From Promethearchaeia archaeon (GTDB lineage: Archaea; Asgardarchaeota; Lokiarchaeia; Sigyniarchaeales; SOKP01): a stretch of 64,000 nt of DNA. A program made the translations under genes and the position numbers. A model generated the notes under the pieces. It did no database searches. It worked only from the letters and a program-made list of their open reading frames with translations, and was not told where the DNA came from. Location of the stretch: contig JAHQWK010000016.1 in assembly GCA_029856145.1 (NCBI GenBank), positions 64,001 to 128,000 on the forward strand. Reading direction: 5' to 3'. This document shows positions 1,705-18,196 of this stretch, piece after piece (the first letter of the stretch is position 1; each line of letters starts with the position of its first letter).

Positions 1705-3333
1705 ATGGGTTCTTTAGAATCTGATAATCCTGAAAAAATTAAAAGAATTTCAAGAGAAATAATAGCTTATTTAATAAATAATCCCGAAACACCCCGTGAA
1801 AAAATAACAAATATTAAAGGAAAAATAAGTAAAAAATATAAATATAATAAAGTAATAAAAAATGCTACTATCTTAGATTATGCATCATCAAAAGAAAAAA
1901 ATAAAATAACTCAGATTCTGAAAAGAAGAAAAACCAGAACTTTATCTGGAGTATCTGTCATAGCTATTATGACTGAACCTCTTCCATGTCCTGGAACATG
2001 TATATATTGTCCTGGACAAGATTCTCAACCAGGGGAAAAAGTTGCTCAATCTTATACTGGTCGAGAACCCGCTGCCATGAGATCTATTCATAATAATTAC
2101 AATCCTTACTTACAAGTCCAAAGCAGAATTAATGATTTAGAAGCAATAGGGCATACAATTGATAAAATTGAACTAATTATAATGGGGGGTACATTCTTAT
2201 CAACTGATCCAGAGTATCAAACAGAATTCATTAAAGGAGCTTTAGAGGGAATAATAGAACAGGAAACAAGCAGTTTAGAAGAAGCCAAGAAACTCGCTGA
2301 GTGCTCCAAAAGACGTGTTATAGGGATAACTATAGAAACAAGACCGGATTACTGTAAAGAAAAAGATGTAGATCGAATGTTAAATTATGGAACGACTCGC
2401 GTTGAAATTGGAATACAAACGGTCTATGATGATATATTTAAACTCGTAAAGAGAGGGCATACTACTTTAGATAGCATAGAGGCCATAAGAATTGCTAAGG
2501 ACGCTGGTTTAAAAATAAATGCCCATATTATGCCCAATCTCCCAGGTTCTGATTATTCAAAAGACATAGAACTTTTTGATGAGTTGTTTTCCAACTCAGA
2601 TTACCGCCCTGATATGCTAAAAATATATCCTACACTTGTAATCAACGGTACTGAATTATATAATTGGTGGAAGAAAGGGAAGTATTCCCCTTATTCAGAT
2701 GAGGAATTAATTGATTTAATCGCAACAGTTAAAAAGATGCTTCCGCCCTATGTACGAATTCAAAGAATAATGAGAGATATCCCTGCCAACCTAATCGAAG
2801 CGGGATGTAGAAATAGCAATTTAAGACAATTGGTTCAAGAAAAATTAAAAGAAATAAATGAAACTTGTAAATGCATTAGATGTAGAGAGTATGGGATCAG
2901 GAAAAGAAAAGAAATTATCGATGAAAACTCTTTCGATGATATTAAGTTGTATAGACTAAATTATGAAGCATCCTATGGTAATGAGGTTTTTCTATCTTTT
3001 GAGAATAAAGTAGAAGATTATTTAGCGGGATATCTTCGTTTAAGACAACCATCTGAATATGCTCATAGACCAGAATTAAATAATGGGAAAACAACGATAG
3101 TAAGAGAAATTAAAGTAGTTGGTGAACTTGTTCCAACAGATTCGAAACCTAACTATTACACTCAAATTCAACATCGAGGATTTGGAAAATTGTTGATGGA
3201 AAATGCTGAAAAGATATCGTCTGAAGATTTTAATGCAGAAAAATTAGCTGTTATCAGTGGTTTCGGAGCTAGAGATTTTTTCAGAAATTTGGGATATAAA
3301 CTAGATGGTGTTTATGTTTCTAAGTTTCTATAA
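1705..3333 (+). CDS. elp3: Elp3 tRNA U34 carboxymethyltransferase (radical SAM + GNAT)
   Basis: TRTLSGV, CPGTCIYCP, QSYTGREPAA, MGGTF, ETRPD, QHRGFGKLLM. Confidence 0.96.
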   Translation: MGSLESDNPEKIKRISREIIAYLINNPETPREKITNIKGKISKKYKYNKVIKNATILDYASSKEKNKITQILKRRKTRTLSGVSVIAIMTEPLPCPGTCIYCPGQDSQPGEKVAQSYTGREPAAMRSIHNNYNPYLQVQSRINDLEAIGHTIDKIELIIMGGTFLSTDPEYQTEFIKGALEGIIEQETSSLEEAKKLAECSKRRVIGITIETRPDYCKEKDVDRMLNYGTTRVEIGIQTVYDDIFKLVKRGHTTLDSIEAIRIAKDAGLKINAHIMPNLPGSDYSKDIELFDELFSNSDYRPDMLKIYPTLVINGTELYNWWKKGKYSPYSDEELIDLIATVKKMLPPYVRIQRIMRDIPANLIEAGCRNSNLRQLVQEKLKEINETCKCIRCREYGIRKRKEIIDENSFDDIKLYRLNYEASYGNEVFLSFENKVEDYLAGYLRLRQPSEYAHRPELNNGKTTIVREIKVVGELVPTDSKPNYYTQIQHRGFGKLLMENAEKISSEDFNAEKLAVISGFGARDFFRNLGYKLDGVYVSKFL

Positions 3334-3498
3334 CAAACTTTTTATTAATTATACAATCTTCTTGGCAGAATCGTATTTTCTTAAAATAAAAACAGTTAAT
3401 TCTCATAACTTATATTTGAAAAACTTTTTTTTTTAATAATTTTAAATAGATGAAATATTACTATATTTATGTCAAAAATGTGTGAGTAATGAATTAAA

Positions 3499-10644: not shown

Positions 10645-11544
10645 TTAATGTAGATTAACGTTAAAATTAAATGTTATATTTTGTAAAAACTCCTTATACC
10701 GAGAACGAAGCGTCACTTCAGTGACTCCAATGACTTTTGAAATGTCTTTTTGGCTTACTTTATGATTCTTCAGCTTCGATACTAAATATATCGCTCCTGC
10801 ACATAACCCTTTTGGATCCTTACCGCAAATCGATGTTTTCTCAATGAAATTCTTTAATACTTTTATCGCCTCTTTCTCCACATTAATATCTAAACTTAAG
10901 TCAGCACAATAGCGTGGTATAAGGGATACAGGATCAATATGGGGTGATTTTAAATTCAATTCTCTTACTAAGATCTTATAGCATTTTTTTACAATATTAT
11001 CATTTATTGACGCTTCATCTAAGATTTCTTGAAGAGTAATAGGAACTCTCTCCTGCTTACATACATAATACGCACAAGCAGCAATCATACCATTTATAGA
11101 TCTGCCCCTTAAGAGATTTCTTTTAAAGACTTCTTTATAAAGCCGAACAGCTGATTTCTTTACTCTCTCTGGAAAATTTAAATTACCACCGATCCTCTTT
11201 AATTCCGTAATGGCAATTAACATATTTCTCTTTTCCCAGGATAAATGAGTATTCCATTTTGCTGCCCTCCTTAAATCGGGATTTTTAATTTTCGTCCTAT
11301 CAATAATAGTACTCAAACCTATATCAGGCATCAAAATTGAAATTGGACATCCGGTTTGTTCTTTTTTATCCTTCTCTTGCTTCGAATAAGCCCTTATACC
11401 ACTGTGAGTGATATCAACTGCCTTTTCAGATACAACTAAACCACAATGCTGACAAACAATCTCCCCTCTTTGATGGATATCGATAGTGGTTCCCCCACAT
11501 TCAGGACAGAAACCACCAGTTTGAAGTGTTATTTCAACAACCAT
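10645..11544 (-). CDS. tfb: Transcription initiation factor TFB (divergent paralog)
   Basis: Zn ribbon CPECG..CQHCG, cyclin repeats LLRGRS and GKDPKG, C-terminal VTEVTLRSRYKE. Confidence 0.93.
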   Translation of the reverse strand: MVVEITLQTGGFCPECGGTTIDIHQRGEIVCQHCGLVVSEKAVDITHSGIRAYSKQEKDKKEQTGCPISILMPDIGLSTIIDRTKIKNPDLRRAAKWNTHLSWEKRNMLIAITELKRIGGNLNFPERVKKSAVRLYKEVFKRNLLRGRSINGMIAACAYYVCKQERVPITLQEILDEASINDNIVKKCYKILVRELNLKSPHIDPVSLIPRYCADLSLDINVEKEAIKVLKNFIEKTSICGKDPKGLCAGAIYLVSKLKNHKVSQKDISKVIGVTEVTLRSRYKEFLQNITFNFNVNLH

Positions 11545-12232
11545 AAGTTTTAACCCTAATTATTAGTTTTTTTATCGATTTTTATGATAATTAGTATTTT
11601 TGAACACACAATAAATACAAAAAAACCTCTTTTTTACAACAAACCCTTTTTTTGTATATAATAACAGATCACTTTCAAGTATTTAAATGTTTTCGTTATA
11701 ACAAATCCTTTATATATGCATTGCTTATTTATACACAAAAAAATTTGTTAGTAAAAACTATTAATATGATATTATAAAATATGTATAATATCCACAATAT
11801 ACCTTTTTTGTTATAAAATCTATTAATGATTTCTATGGAATTACTAAATTTGTCGGAAAAATTGGTTATAATAAGTATAAATCAATTTCTTTTAGCATAA
11901 AAAAGGATTGAAATTAATTATAACTAATTGCATTTTTCATTAAACTATATCATTACTTATGTTTTCACATTATTCATAATTATCAATGCATAGGGTATTA
12001 TAAAATTCAATTTATCGTTTTGTACACACAAAATTCCGTTTTCATACAAGTAAAAAAAATAAAAAAAAAGTTAAATAATAGTTCTTTTATTATGTTTTCA
12101 AGCCAAAATTAGTTTGGAATTAGTGGTAAAAAAATAAGTAATCCTAATAAAACTGAGGAAAAACAGGATAAAAAAGATTCAGAGGAATCTTCTATAATCA
12201 ATAATGGTAATTCTATTAAAAAAACAGATGAA

Positions 12233-13066
12233 ATGAAGAAATACGAGGAAATCACCGGTAGATATGCAATTTGGCGGGGAGTCATAACCGAGGGTTTTAG
12301 AAAGTGGCAAAGAGGGGAGAAAGTCTATCACAGAGAAAAAGAACGAATTTCTTTGTATGTATCTGATGACACTAAATCAAAGTGGTTAAAATATACAAAG
12401 AATAATGGAGATCTTACCATCTCAAAGCTTATTCGAGAGGCAGTCTCATATTTTATAGAAAGTAAATCAATAGAAACTGGGTATAGCTTATCAAAATTAA
12501 ATCCTCAAACAATTTCAAATATCTCTCATACATTAAAGGAGCCTTTAACTTCAATAAAGGGTTATTCACAGCTACTTCTTGAGAACTATAGAGAAAAATT
12601 GAATGATCAGGTTTTAGAGACAGTCAAAAATATTTTTGAACAGTCTATCCTACTTGAGAAGAAAATAATTAATATTTTAGATAACATAAAAGTAGAATCA
12701 GACTACGATGTGTTATTAATTGAGGATGATCTTGCAACCATTCGATTGATAACAAGTTATTTCGACAGTAAGGGATATGAATGTAAAGGTGTTGTAAGTG
12801 GTTCAAAAGGCTTGGAAGAATTAGGGAATACAATTCCAAAACTGATCTTGTTAGATATTATTTTGCCGGACCTAAGTGGATATGACATCTGTAAAACAAT
12901 TAAGTCAGATAAAGAATGGTCACATATTCCTTTATTTTTCTTAACCGCCATAGCTGGGAGCGAGGTCGAAAAAAACTTACCAGATACGAAAGCAGATGGG
13001 TATATATTAAAACCGTTTAATTTTTCTGACTTTGAAGTAATTTTTGATATTTTAAAGAAAAGCTAA
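12233..13066 (+). CDS. RHH-HisKA-receiver fusion regulator (paralog 1); frame open back to 12113
   Basis: RISLYVSDDTKSKW..TISKLIREAV (RHH); ISHTLKEPLTSIKG (H-box); IEDD/LLDIILPD/LTA/KPF (REC). Confidence 0.85.
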   Translation: MKKYEEITGRYAIWRGVITEGFRKWQRGEKVYHREKERISLYVSDDTKSKWLKYTKNNGDLTISKLIREAVSYFIESKSIETGYSLSKLNPQTISNISHTLKEPLTSIKGYSQLLLENYREKLNDQVLETVKNIFEQSILLEKKIINILDNIKVESDYDVLLIEDDLATIRLITSYFDSKGYECKGVVSGSKGLEELGNTIPKLILLDIILPDLSGYDICKTIKSDKEWSHIPLFFLTAIAGSEVEKNLPDTKADGYILKPFNFSDFEVIFDILKKS

Positions 13067-13348
13067 GAGCACAATTTTATACTTTAACTATTTCTTAAAA
13101 ATTTGGACATAATCACAATAACACATTAGCTTTATAATAAAAAAGATTTATAAACGGATAAAAAATTACACAATATTGTATACTATCATTATTTGAAATC
13201 ATTATTGAAGATAAATTTTGTATAATTGGAGATCAATGTTTACAAAATATTAGATATCTGATAAAAAAAAAAGAGGGATCAAAAAATTTCAAATAAAAAC
13301 AATACAGCTAAAAAAAATAAGAAAGAAAAAGGAATTGAGAAGAGGAGC

Positions 13349-14239
13349 ATGACAGATGAGGAGATCGCTAACCTCGATCTGAACAGTAAAGAATTTAAGG
13401 AATTAACGAAAAAATATGAAGAGGGAACTGATAAATATGCAATTTGGCGTGGATCTATTACAGAAGGATTTAAAAAGTGGTTAAAAGGGGAAAAAATATA
13501 TGACAGAGATAAAGAAAGAATCTCATTATATGTTTCCGAAGAGACAAAACAGCAATGGCAAGATTTTAAAGAAAGAAAGGAATATTCGACTATCTCAGCT
13601 TTGATTCGAGAGAGTGTTGATTTTTATATTGAGCAAAAATCTGATCTACTTAGCGATAGATTACAAAGAATGGATGAAAAGACAATTTCTAATATTTCTC
13701 ATGCTTTAAAGGAACCACTCACCACAATAAAGGGATTTAGTCAACTCCTTCTGGAAAATTACGCAGATGAGTTGAATGAAGATGTATTGGTTACAATTAA
13801 AAATATCTTTGATCAAAGTTTACTTCTTGAAAATAAAATCATTAACATTTTAGATAATATCGCTACTGAAGAACCTCATCCTCAGTATGATATACTTCTG
13901 ATTGAAGACGATTTAGCAACTATACGTTTGCTTACGAGTTATTTCGAAAGTAAAGGCTATAAATGTAAGGGCGTCGTAAGTGGAACAAAAGGTATAGAAG
14001 AAATTAGGGGCGGGCTCCCTAAACTTATCCTATTAGATATCATCTTACCAGACATATCTGGCTATGAAATATGTAAAATGATTAAGGAGCATGAAAAATA
14101 TCAGGAAATTCCTGTCTACTTATTAACTGCAATACCTGGGAGTGAGGTGGAAAAAAAAATGGTTGATATTAAAGCCGATGGATATATCTTGAAACCTTTC
14201 GATTTTTCAGATTTTGAAGTAGTCTTCCGATATTTATAA
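13349..14239 (+). CDS. RHH-HisKA-receiver fusion regulator (paralog 2)
   Basis: RISLYVSEETKQQW..TISALIRESV; ISHALKEPLTTIKG; IEDD/LLDIILPD/LTA/KPF; GAGGAG SD directly upstream. Confidence 0.85.
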   Translation: MTDEEIANLDLNSKEFKELTKKYEEGTDKYAIWRGSITEGFKKWLKGEKIYDRDKERISLYVSEETKQQWQDFKERKEYSTISALIRESVDFYIEQKSDLLSDRLQRMDEKTISNISHALKEPLTTIKGFSQLLLENYADELNEDVLVTIKNIFDQSLLLENKIINILDNIATEEPHPQYDILLIEDDLATIRLLTSYFESKGYKCKGVVSGTKGIEEIRGGLPKLILLDIILPDISGYEICKMIKEHEKYQEIPVYLLTAIPGSEVEKKMVDIKADGYILKPFDFSDFEVVFRYL

Positions 14240-14292
14240 TTTATTTTAAGACAAATGTGGGATTGTCCCTAATTAATTTTTTTTAAAAATAG

Positions 14293-14396
14293 CGGGCTAT
14301 GAGGGAATCCCGTCAGCTGGGGTGTCTCCAGCTCATTTCGAACCCCCGACCCACCGGTTAAGAGCCGGTTGCGCTACCTGCCTGCGCCAATAGCCC
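14293..14396 (-). tRNA. tRNA-Lys(CUU) with 30-nt T-loop (59/60) intron at 14307-14336
   Basis: Acceptor GGGCTAT/ATAGCCC, anticodon arm ACCGG-CTCTTAA-CCGGT; removing the intron restores GGGGG-TTCGAAT-CCCTC and gives a 74-nt mature tRNA. Confidence 0.93.
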
Positions 14397-14430
14397 CTAA
14401 TTTAGTATTTTATATAATGTTTCTAAAAAG

Positions 14431-14565
14431 CGCAGACGGAGGGAATCCCGTCAGTTGAAGCATTTCCAACTGATCTCGAACCCCCGAGCGCTCGCGCGCA
14501 CCGGCTAACTTGTTTAAATATTAAAAATCTCAAGGCCGGCGTCTTACCAGCTAGGCTACGTCTGC
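14431..14565 (-). tRNA. tRNA-Ser(UGA) with two introns: 22 nt at 37/38 (14507-14528) and 30 nt at 59/60 (14445-14474)
   Basis: Acceptor GCAGACG/CGTCTGC, G73, variable arm GCGC-GCGA-GCGC, anticodon loop CTTGAGA after splicing; both introns form BHB motifs. Confidence 0.92.
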
Positions 14566-14711
14566 GTAATTAAAAATTTTATATTTTAATACTTATTTTA
14601 CTTTGATGCTATAAATAGTTTATAATAAAGAAAATAAATTTTTTATTATTTTACATTTGTCCTTCTTAAGCTCTACCTCAACAATAAGTAAAATATAAAT
14701 TTCATGCTACA

Positions 14712-15227
14712 TTGACCATTAAAAGAGATGGTGAAGATATGAGTGGGGCAAAGGATTTTCGTTATTTAATACCAGAAAGTTTATTTAAAGAGATTACTCA
14801 AAAGGCGTCAGAAGAATATCCAAACATCATTCATGGGTGGCTCTTTGCCGAGAGAAAAGAGAATTTCGGAATCTGTACTAAATTCATAAAGAATCCCGAT
14901 TTACGGAAAAATAAAGTTCATGTTAAACCACGAAGTTGGATGCGCTATAAAAAATCTAAAATCTATAATATGCGTAAATTCAAAGCTGAACTGGGGGTTG
15001 ATATTGTCTATATGTGGCACTCTCATCCGTCGGGGAACGAGAAGCTTCACGCTATTGACAAGAGAATCTTGAAGTATTTATCAAATGGAGTTATGATAAT
15101 CGTTATCCCTTCAGTTCCCAATAAAACACCAGAACAAAAAGCTCATCTAGTAGGCTGGTATTACGATAAAAGGTATACAAAGAAGCCAATCATCGAAAAA
15201 ATGGTTTTTGAGATAATCTCGGAATAA
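14712..15227 (+). CDS. JAB/MPN (Mov34)-domain protein, divergent
   Basis: WHSHPSG.....D motif, N-terminal YP....G and downstream IMIIV; alternative ATG at 14739. Confidence 0.7.
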   Translation: MTIKRDGEDMSGAKDFRYLIPESLFKEITQKASEEYPNIIHGWLFAERKENFGICTKFIKNPDLRKNKVHVKPRSWMRYKKSKIYNMRKFKAELGVDIVYMWHSHPSGNEKLHAIDKRILKYLSNGVMIIVIPSVPNKTPEQKAHLVGWYYDKRYTKKPIIEKMVFEIISE

Positions 15228-17824: not shown

Positions 17825-18196
17825 ATGGAAGAACAAAGATTTAATGATTTAGTTGAGGCACTAAATGAGTATGAAGGAGTGGAGGAAGTTTTTCTACTAA
17901 ATAATGAAGGAGATATCGTTTTTAAATCGGGGGATTTTCCTTTATCAAATGAAGAGGCTAAGGCAATACTAAATGCTTGGAAAACAAAAGAACCTGCTCT
18001 CACATATCAAAATTATCGATTTGCAATTTTAAAGAATGATGAAATACAATTGGCTGCTAAAAATATTGGCGCTGGGAAAGGTAATTTCATTGGATCGATC
18101 ACAAAAGAAGGAGATTACCTTGTTGCTCGTACTAGAGATGAGGGTATGATATTGTTAGAATGGTCTATTTTTATAAATAAAGTAGCATGGTCATAA
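17825..18196 (+). CDS. Profilin-like protein (Asgard type)
   Basis: 123 aa; helix, then VFLLNNEGDIVFKS, then LTYQNYRFAILKND..LAAKN..GKG, resembling Loki profilins. Confidence 0.65.
   Translation: MEEQRFNDLVEALNEYEGVEEVFLLNNEGDIVFKSGDFPLSNEEAKAILNAWKTKEPALTYQNYRFAILKNDEIQLAAKNIGAGKGNFIGSITKEGDYLVARTRDEGMILLEWSIFINKVAWS

Follow-up and report, generated by a model that had tools for sequence, protein, structure and literature searches.

Tandem response regulators with a predicted ribbon-helix-helix DNA-binding output form a lineage-specific family in Lokiarchaeia

Genes A and B and their domains

The window analyzed here was a 64,000-nt stretch from a Promethearchaeia archaeon (Lokiarchaeia; Sigyniarchaeales), corresponding to positions 64,001 to 128,000 of the forward strand of contig JAHQWK010000016.1 (C18 hereafter) in assembly GCA_029856145.1, a genome of 3.55 Mb in 32 contigs. 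Two tandem genes, designated A and B, were located on the same strand within the window (Table 1). Their products were paralogues with 66% identity over the full length, and they shared one domain order: N-terminal mini-domain (N-module), ribbon-helix-helix (RHH) domain, flexible linker, HisKA-type dimerization and histidine phosphotransfer (DHp) hairpin, short linker, and receiver (REC). On a slight balance of probability, A and B would be RHH response regulators dimerized by the DHp bundle and phosphorylated on aspartate by separate kinases.

An earlier note on this DNA had placed the pair at 12113-14239 and had read an N-module, an RHH, a DHp hairpin, and a complete receiver (EDD, LLD, LTA, and KPF) in both open reading frames (ORFs). 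The two same-strand ORFs were confirmed, and Pfam and structure search agreed with this domain content, but position 12113 was only the stop-to-stop start of the A frame, whose first ATG/GTG/TTG codon lay at 12233. Under the curated Pfam cut-offs (26.9 bits for HisKA, 30.2 bits for Response_reg, and 20.5 bits for RHH_1), HisKA scored 36.1 and 32.9 bits and Response_reg 63.8 and 71.3 bits in A and B, respectively, all above cut-off, and Pfam gave no HATPase_c match in either protein; the NCBIfam matches were all partial and fell far below threshold, covering the receiver or the DHp-receiver portion of known regulators and hybrid kinases. The identity between A and B was 85% (alpha-1) and 73% in the two DHp helices, 71% in the receiver, 53% in the RHH helices, and 15% in the linker. 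Judged by their identical DNA-reading strand residues and near-identical DHp alpha-1 and receiver alpha-1, A and B probably bind the same sites and serve the same kinase(s); their differences, concentrated in the RHH helices and linker, probably affect RHH dimer packing.

AlphaFold was applied to monomers of full-length B (42-sequence alignment) and of B residues 1-108 (62-sequence alignment; pLDDT 87). An extended segment (residues 55-62) followed by two helices (64-76 and 82-97) was present in the full-length model, and two structure searches were run with the model of residues 1-108: (i) Foldseek returned an almost purely RHH list (NikR, YiiF, ParD, PrpA, CopA, ORF56, CopG, PutA, and AmrZ) with probability up to 0.97, and (ii) VIA-align, a Foldseek-independent search of 48,161 chains, ranked RHH domains in practically every one of the first 30+ places (Z 4.3-6.9, rmsd 1.0-2.5 Å over 43-56 residues), such as PutA (1.0 Å over 44/44 residues) and NikR (1.3 Å over 46). 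Both searches aligned mainly to residues 52-108, not to the N-module, and TacA, NikR, PutA, ParD, CopG, and Arc were among the best-matching RHH domains of residues 52-108. The VIA-align Z values were middling in absolute terms, and what argues for RHH is the uniformity of the list together with the whole-domain coverage; on this predicted structure, the RHH fold of B, as called in the earlier note, was settled. A family alignment and tree were further built from 130 sequences, composed of 90 A/B-clade members from at least seven genera and 40 other representatives, and the RHH strand R53-D-K-E-R-I-S-L-Y61 was invariant in 90/90 A/B-clade sequences; the N-terminus of RHH helix 2 was invariant too.

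The receiver was complete in both proteins, with the E/D-D pair, the phosphorylatable Asp (208 in A and 230 in B), Thr, Lys, and the aromatic switch residue. E/D186, D187, D230, T/S260, and K282 (B numbering) were kept in 128-130 of the 130 family sequences, and the aromatic switch residue in 88/90 A/B-clade members. Residues 182-295 of B displayed the (beta/alpha)5 fold, with RR468, PmrA, PhoB, and CheY as the top Foldseek matches (1.5-1.9 Å over 113-119 residues). No FATGUY-type motif was present in the receiver.

The H-box of the DHp hairpin was NISHTLKEPLT in A (His99) and NISHALKEPLT in B (His118), with Thr/Ala at H+1 and Glu at H+4, exactly as the earlier note had read them; these differ from the acidic (H+1) and Thr/Asn (H+4) residues of working HisKA kinases, which fits the absent catalytic domain. 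As known from HisKA mutational studies, changes at H+1 and H+4 remove the residues for autokinase and phosphatase activity, not the phosphotransfer site. Across the 90 A/B-clade members, H+1 was Ala (61), Thr (26), Ser (2), or Asp (1), and H+4 was Glu (89) or Gln (1). The histidine itself was kept in all 90 and, within the motif SH[A/S]LKEPLT, in 120/120 close homologues of B. DHp alpha-1 was the most conserved segment of the A/B clade (mean entropy of 0.43 bits; receiver, 0.71; RHH, 1.06), and its exposed residues S117, H118, K121, E122, T125, K128, and Q132 were invariant. Such constraint suggests a surface conserved for partner binding, the receiver being the simplest candidate partner, and His-Asp exchange would be possible for A and B. 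Outside the A/B clades, the histidine was replaced by Y, F, L, V, N, Q, K, or R in 13/40 representatives with the receiver Asp and Lys retained; these losses were spread over several distinct lineages in the tree, and one affected a member of a tandem pair (L058). Since the receiver residues were near-invariant and the histidine was lost in 13/40, the site that appears indispensable across the family is the Asp phosphorylation site and not the His one, and a His relay would not be the family-wide core mechanism.

Table 1. Features at the A/B locus (positions in the window)
Feature	Position	Strand	Evidence or remark
Gene A, RHH-DHp-REC regulator, 277 aa	12233..13066	+	ORF; Pfam HisKA residues 93-150, Response_reg 160-267
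A N-terminal mini-domain (YAIWRG..TEGF.KW)	12233..12331	+	70% identical to aligned B residues 20-52
A ribbon-helix-helix (KERISLYVS strand plus two helices)	12332..12466	+	aligned with B RHH; strand residues invariant in 90/90 A/B-clade members
A DHp/HisKA hairpin	12503..12682	+	His99 codon 12527-12529; Pfam
A receiver	12710..13063	+	Asp208 codon 12854-12856, Lys260 codon 13010
Gene B, RHH-DHp-REC regulator, 296 aa	13349..14239	+	ORF; Pfam; AlphaFold pLDDT 88
B N-terminal mini-domain (helix 14-27, hairpin 32-36, helix 39-45)	13388..13504	+	AlphaFold; residues 14-52
B ribbon-helix-helix, residues 53-97	13505..13639	+	structural neighbours nearly all RHH
B DHp/HisKA hairpin (helices 110-137 and 144-169)	13676..13855	+	His118 codon 13700-13702; Pfam, AlphaFold
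B receiver	13892..14236	+	Asp230 codon 14036-14038, Lys282 codon 14192; Pfam, Foldseek
TFB paralogue, divergent from A	10645..11544	-	TFIIB and Zn-ribbon matches in Pfam
Inverted repeat TTGT-n-ACAA 5' of gene A, weak lead	12020..12031	+	15/41 loci vs 3.8 expected (Markov shuffles)
Conserved upstream element TTAGTGGTAAAAAAATAAG, candidate promoter/operator of A	12120..12138	+	consensus [T/A]GTGGTA[A/C]AAAA
ACAATATTGT palindrome (ACAA-n-TTGT) upstream of B, weak lead	13170..13179	+	13/41 loci vs 2.7 expected
JAB/MPN-like protein downstream of B	14712..15227	+	Prok-JAB E 6e-5, just below cut-off
Profilin-like protein, conserved downstream neighbour	17825..18196	+	E 0.003, below cut-off

These patterns bear on the main alternative, in which A and B would be phosphorelay nodes resembling a fused Spo0F-Spo0B: the receiver would take the phosphoryl group from a kinase and pass it to its own His118, which would exchange it with stand-alone receivers, and the RHH would report to DNA. 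This was considered unlikely, although its probability was appreciable. The invariant histidine of the A/B orthologues, the high conservation of DHp alpha-1 including exposed residues, and the H+1 and H+4 residues that spare the phosphotransfer site all speak for it. In addition, DHp-REC pairs of hybrid kinases transfer in both directions (PMC9981736), and a phospho-acceptor, phosphotransfer, or phosphatase role has been proposed for the histidine of kinase-less HisKA proteins (PMC5847659). It is opposed by the His-less representatives with their intact receiver site, by a receiver in which the aromatic switch is kept and the FATGUY-type motif known from some shuttle receivers is missing (PMC9981736), and by the finding that no downstream acceptor was encoded nearby. 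The ChpT/Spo0B-like phosphotransfer suggested by the earlier note was therefore compatible with the A/B clades, where its expectation of a conserved histidine was borne out, and not with a family core, given the losses elsewhere; its idea of a DHp gating the RHH, taken in a rigid form, was weakened by the RHH-DHp linker (B residues 98-109), which was the least conserved and lowest-confidence segment.

Distribution, prior record, and genomic context of the family

The Asgard survey with B residues 1-180 as query (E<=1e-10) found matches in 130/400 genomes: 124/134 in the host's own family, 4/4 and 1/14 in two further families of its order, and 0/about 250 elsewhere; the RHH-DHp-REC family was thus confined to one Asgard order among the 400 genomes. 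An exhaustive HMMER search of 1.84 billion representatives gave 72 clusters at E<1e-10. No RHH+HisKA+HATPase fusion was found among the best 150 of 189 hits inspected, and eight longer hits that were scanned included ordinary PAS/HAMP kinases matching on the DHp only; among 42 aligned family members, there was likewise no HATPase_c. Close homologues were 78-99% identical to B, and they included LCGC14 proteins (P0107 and P0120; 78-79%) of a marine sediment metagenome, which we take to be the source of Lokiarchaeum GC14_75. As a separate observation, the relative P0179 (367 aa) contained two tandem RHH-DHp units without a receiver, and it had no Pfam match.

The architecture was not recognized in the earlier note, and yet it had been listed already: Galperin, Makarova, Wolf, and Koonin in 2018 recorded four 'Arc-type RHH-HisKA-REC' proteins in Lokiarchaeum sp. 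GC14_75 in one sentence and with no function assigned, and they described 'HisKA, no HATPase' proteins, together with regulators combining HisKA and REC, as a class in archaea that had not been studied (PMC5847659). The earlier note had also allowed for an already characterized family; the family is catalogued without a characterized member, and no paper characterizing any RHH-HisKA-REC protein was found in the literature. The architecture itself is thus not new, and the gain lies in its context and in testable hypotheses; new here are the order-restricted range, the TFB/A/B/JAB synteny, the pattern of His loss, a kinase-paired short paralogue, an A-less genome, and a GTPase-linked N-module.

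The host genome harbored four copies of the family: A, B, a third paralogue on contig C3, and a shorter fourth on contig C19 that had no N-module. The third paralogue was located between two RagA/Arf-like small-GTPase genes (L003 105..1286 and 2892..3470). The short paralogue had no close orthologue group by identity, its best hits reaching 49-53% identity, a level equal to that shared with A and B.

The N-module core comprised about 35 residues (ETGKxAIWRGxITEGFKKW) and was as conserved as the RHH; it belonged to no Pfam family, and ESM Atlas gave no usable hit. The N-module was mobile: in P0192, P0220, P0232, and P0254, it occurred after Arf or Ras GTPase domains, once in the order Arf-Nmodule-REC, and once after a Ras fragment plus a gelsolin repeat. 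In the host genome, it headed an ABC ATPase (L067 1973..3151), lay at the end of a 419-aa protein (L095 1483..2742, minus strand), and was present twice in a Lys-rich 356-aa protein (L096 1030..2100, minus strand). Because the N-module was common to A/B, the Arf/Ras fusions, and the Ras-gelsolin protein, and because the third paralogue stood between GTPase genes, the N-module might be an adaptor tying two-component phosphorylation to Asgard small-GTPase signalling, with A and B as DNA-binding phosphorelay nodes that have an active histidine, sense the state of GTPases, and regulate a TFB paralogue dedicated to them; this proposal was held to be improbable.

The A-B tandem was present in nearly every fetched locus from at least seven genera, and the gene order GatD, uL2, TFB (minus strand), A, B, and JAB-like gene was kept in seven genera. 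A TFB paralogue, one of seven in the host genome, adjoined A/B in 18/20 loci from seven genera; this adjacency suggests a link and does not prove it, since the wider neighbourhood was syntenic too. The persistence of the tandem, together with the high identity of the DHp helices between A and B, would also agree with an obligate A:B heterodimer, in which only a mixed DHp bundle works and for that reason the pair exists. This was rated very improbable: a single 2.27-Mb contig (L054) kept B with A absent between TFB and B and with no remnant of it, one genus had a pair in which one member lacked the histidine (L058), and two further paralogues stood alone in the host genome. Heterodimers, which the earlier note had entertained as a possibility, would accordingly not be obligatory.

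Candidate cis elements were looked for around A and B. Elements of the type at 12120-12138 recurred 44-223 nt upstream of A-type ATG codons in at least five genera, and GTGGTAAA was found in 11/31 A/B upstream regions versus 3/148 control upstream regions, again in at least five genera. The palindrome at 13170-13179 was kept also in L054, where A was missing. Alignment of the intergenic regions across genera was too diverged for an operator search, and no regulon was definable from the candidate elements. Downstream of B, a G+C-rich stretch was observed at 14293-14565, and neither ARAGORN nor Rfam detected RNA genes at 14240-14711.

Candidate kinases and the proposed mechanism

There were 27 HATPase_c matches in the host genome, none of them on contig C18, in keeping with the earlier note, which had seen neither HATPase boxes in A and B nor a kinase gene in the window; roughly 20 PAS-type histidine kinases were encoded elsewhere. 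The short paralogue was convergent with a PAS kinase gene, within about 100 nt, in the host genome (L071, contig C19) and in four other genera (L081, L083, L086, and L089). In Lokiarchaeum GC14_75, KKK46010.1 (HisKA; REC) has been tabled directly before KKK46009.1, a large PAS/HATPase protein (PMC10343646, 2023), and these consecutive accessions suggest neighbouring genes. A kinase beside the short paralogue supports ordinary trans-phosphorylation by a classical kinase, at least for the short-paralogue branch. On the other side of the short paralogue on contig C19, a gene for a methyl-accepting chemotaxis protein was observed.

A search for split kinases, in which a separate catalytic domain would complement the DHp, was confined to contigs C25 and C12, the C9 locus (L070) lying outside it, and yielded no such domain; no ORF of at least 90 aa with a kinase domain was found at the C12 locus. 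On contig C25, a PAS histidine kinase was contained in two overlapping minus-strand frames (L068 1565..2161 and 2095..2520) with the H-box in one and the HATPase in the other, which would reflect either a frameshift or an mRNA mini-intron. The short HATPase_c frame there, tried as a stand-alone catalytic and ATP-binding (CA) domain, was rejected as such, because it belonged to this two-frame kinase whose upstream frame carried the PAS and H-box.

The nearest relatives of the DHp were the DHps of the host's own PAS kinases (36-41% identity over about 70 residues). This resemblance, the kinase as conserved neighbour of the short paralogue, and the His-to-Tyr replacement in some paralogues, which recalls DivL, are consistent with a kinase-modulator alternative: the DHp would pair with true kinase DHps in the style of RetS-GacS or dock receivers as a pseudo-kinase in the style of DivL, titrating or redirecting their output, and DNA binding would be secondary. 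It was regarded as distinctly improbable, for the invariant RHH strand and helix-2 N-terminus are hard to explain without DNA binding, and a simple decoy needs no complete receiver.

The favoured reading of A and B as DHp-dimerized, Asp-phosphorylated RHH regulators would involve the following steps: (i) the N-terminal RHH is the predicted DNA-binding output of a lineage-specific set of Lokiarchaeia response regulators; (ii) the DHp would form the usual four-helix bundle and hold two chains together, and this pairing would bring two RHH strands into a two-stranded DNA-reading sheet; (iii) one or more of the PAS-type kinases would act in trans to phosphorylate the receiver; (iv) phosphorylation would shift the seating of the receiver on the conserved DHp surface, as in kinase:regulator complexes; and (v) the shifted receiver would change either the oligomeric state of the paired RHH domains or their affinity for the operator. 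The likely targets would be the promoters of A and B themselves and the divergent TFB paralogue. In the A/B clade, the histidine may additionally swap the phosphoryl group with the Asp of the same protein as a buffer or relay, like the DHp-REC of hybrid kinases, being a clade add-on and not part of the family core.

Several results weigh against this reading. As for the DNA-binding output, RHH_1 was sub-threshold in B by sequence (residues 57-96, E 0.08, 13.3 bits vs 20.5) and reached E<1 in 7/42 aligned members, and a profile of the RHH region gave at best CopG (E 0.56) and ORF56 (E 0.65) among PDB sequences. As for dimerization, the full-length B model, a monomer only, had a mean pLDDT of 88 and a pTM of 0.46, with confident domains in a loose mutual arrangement and a short low-confidence linker between DHp hairpin and receiver; moreover, the invariant exposed DHp residues exceed the needs of a passive dimerization coil, and the DHp surface therefore appears to do more than hold the dimer. 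As for kinases and targets, no kinase gene adjoined A or B, the GTGGTAAAA element showed no genome-wide enrichment (16 hits vs 15 for the reversed control), and the TTGT/ACAA palindromes came almost all from one genus, so that their counts were not independent.

Significance and comparison with known systems

Archaeal response regulators rarely have a recognizable DNA-binding output, and the route from archaeal two-component systems to genes is largely open (PMC5847659). The RHH-DHp-REC family clearly qualifies as a candidate for a route that is direct; it is carried by nearly every genome of one Lokiarchaeia family, and it lies beside a TFB paralogue. Its histidine, frozen in two clades and repeatedly lost in others, offers a natural experiment on the role of a DHp without an ATPase.

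Spo0B and ChpT resemble A and B, whose own bundle is a prediction, in having a dimeric DHp-like four-helix bundle with a phosphorylatable histidine and no kinase activity. In Spo0B, the CA-like domain is retained in degenerate form, and receiver and DNA-binding domains are both missing. ChpT likewise has a degenerate CA-like domain and, unlike A/B, no receiver and no DNA-binding domain (PMC3433190). A further difference from both is that a third of the wider RHH-DHp-REC family can do without the histidine.

The Arc-type RHH-HisKA-REC proteins of Lokiarchaeum GC14_75 have the same architecture and the same copy number (four per genome) and do not differ in kind from those described here; the 2018 account of them contained no N-module, tandem pair, TFB neighbour, or pattern of His loss (PMC5847659). 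The archaeal 'HisKA, no HATPase' and REC-(PAS/GAF)-HisKA proteins (e.g., AF_1472) are kinase-less HisKA proteins, some with a receiver, that are predicted to dimerize and have been left unstudied; proteins of the AF_1472 type combine PAS/GAF domains with a receiver at the N-terminus and have no DNA-binding domain, while the order in A/B is RHH-DHp-REC (PMC5847659). Hybrid kinases with DHp-CA-REC organization, such as CckA and ShkA, join a HisKA DHp and a receiver within a single chain as A/B do, and their receiver can dock on its own DHp (PMC9981736); A/B differ from them in having no CA and no sensor, in having Ala/Thr at H+1 and Glu at H+4 instead of acidic and Thr/Asn residues, and in the added RHH. 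NikR and PutA, which were among the best matches of the B RHH, likewise begin with an RHH, and in them DNA binding is dependent on a dimerizing or tetramerizing sensing domain at the C-terminus; the sensing part is a metal-binding domain or an enzyme in NikR and PutA, whereas it is a two-component module in A and B.

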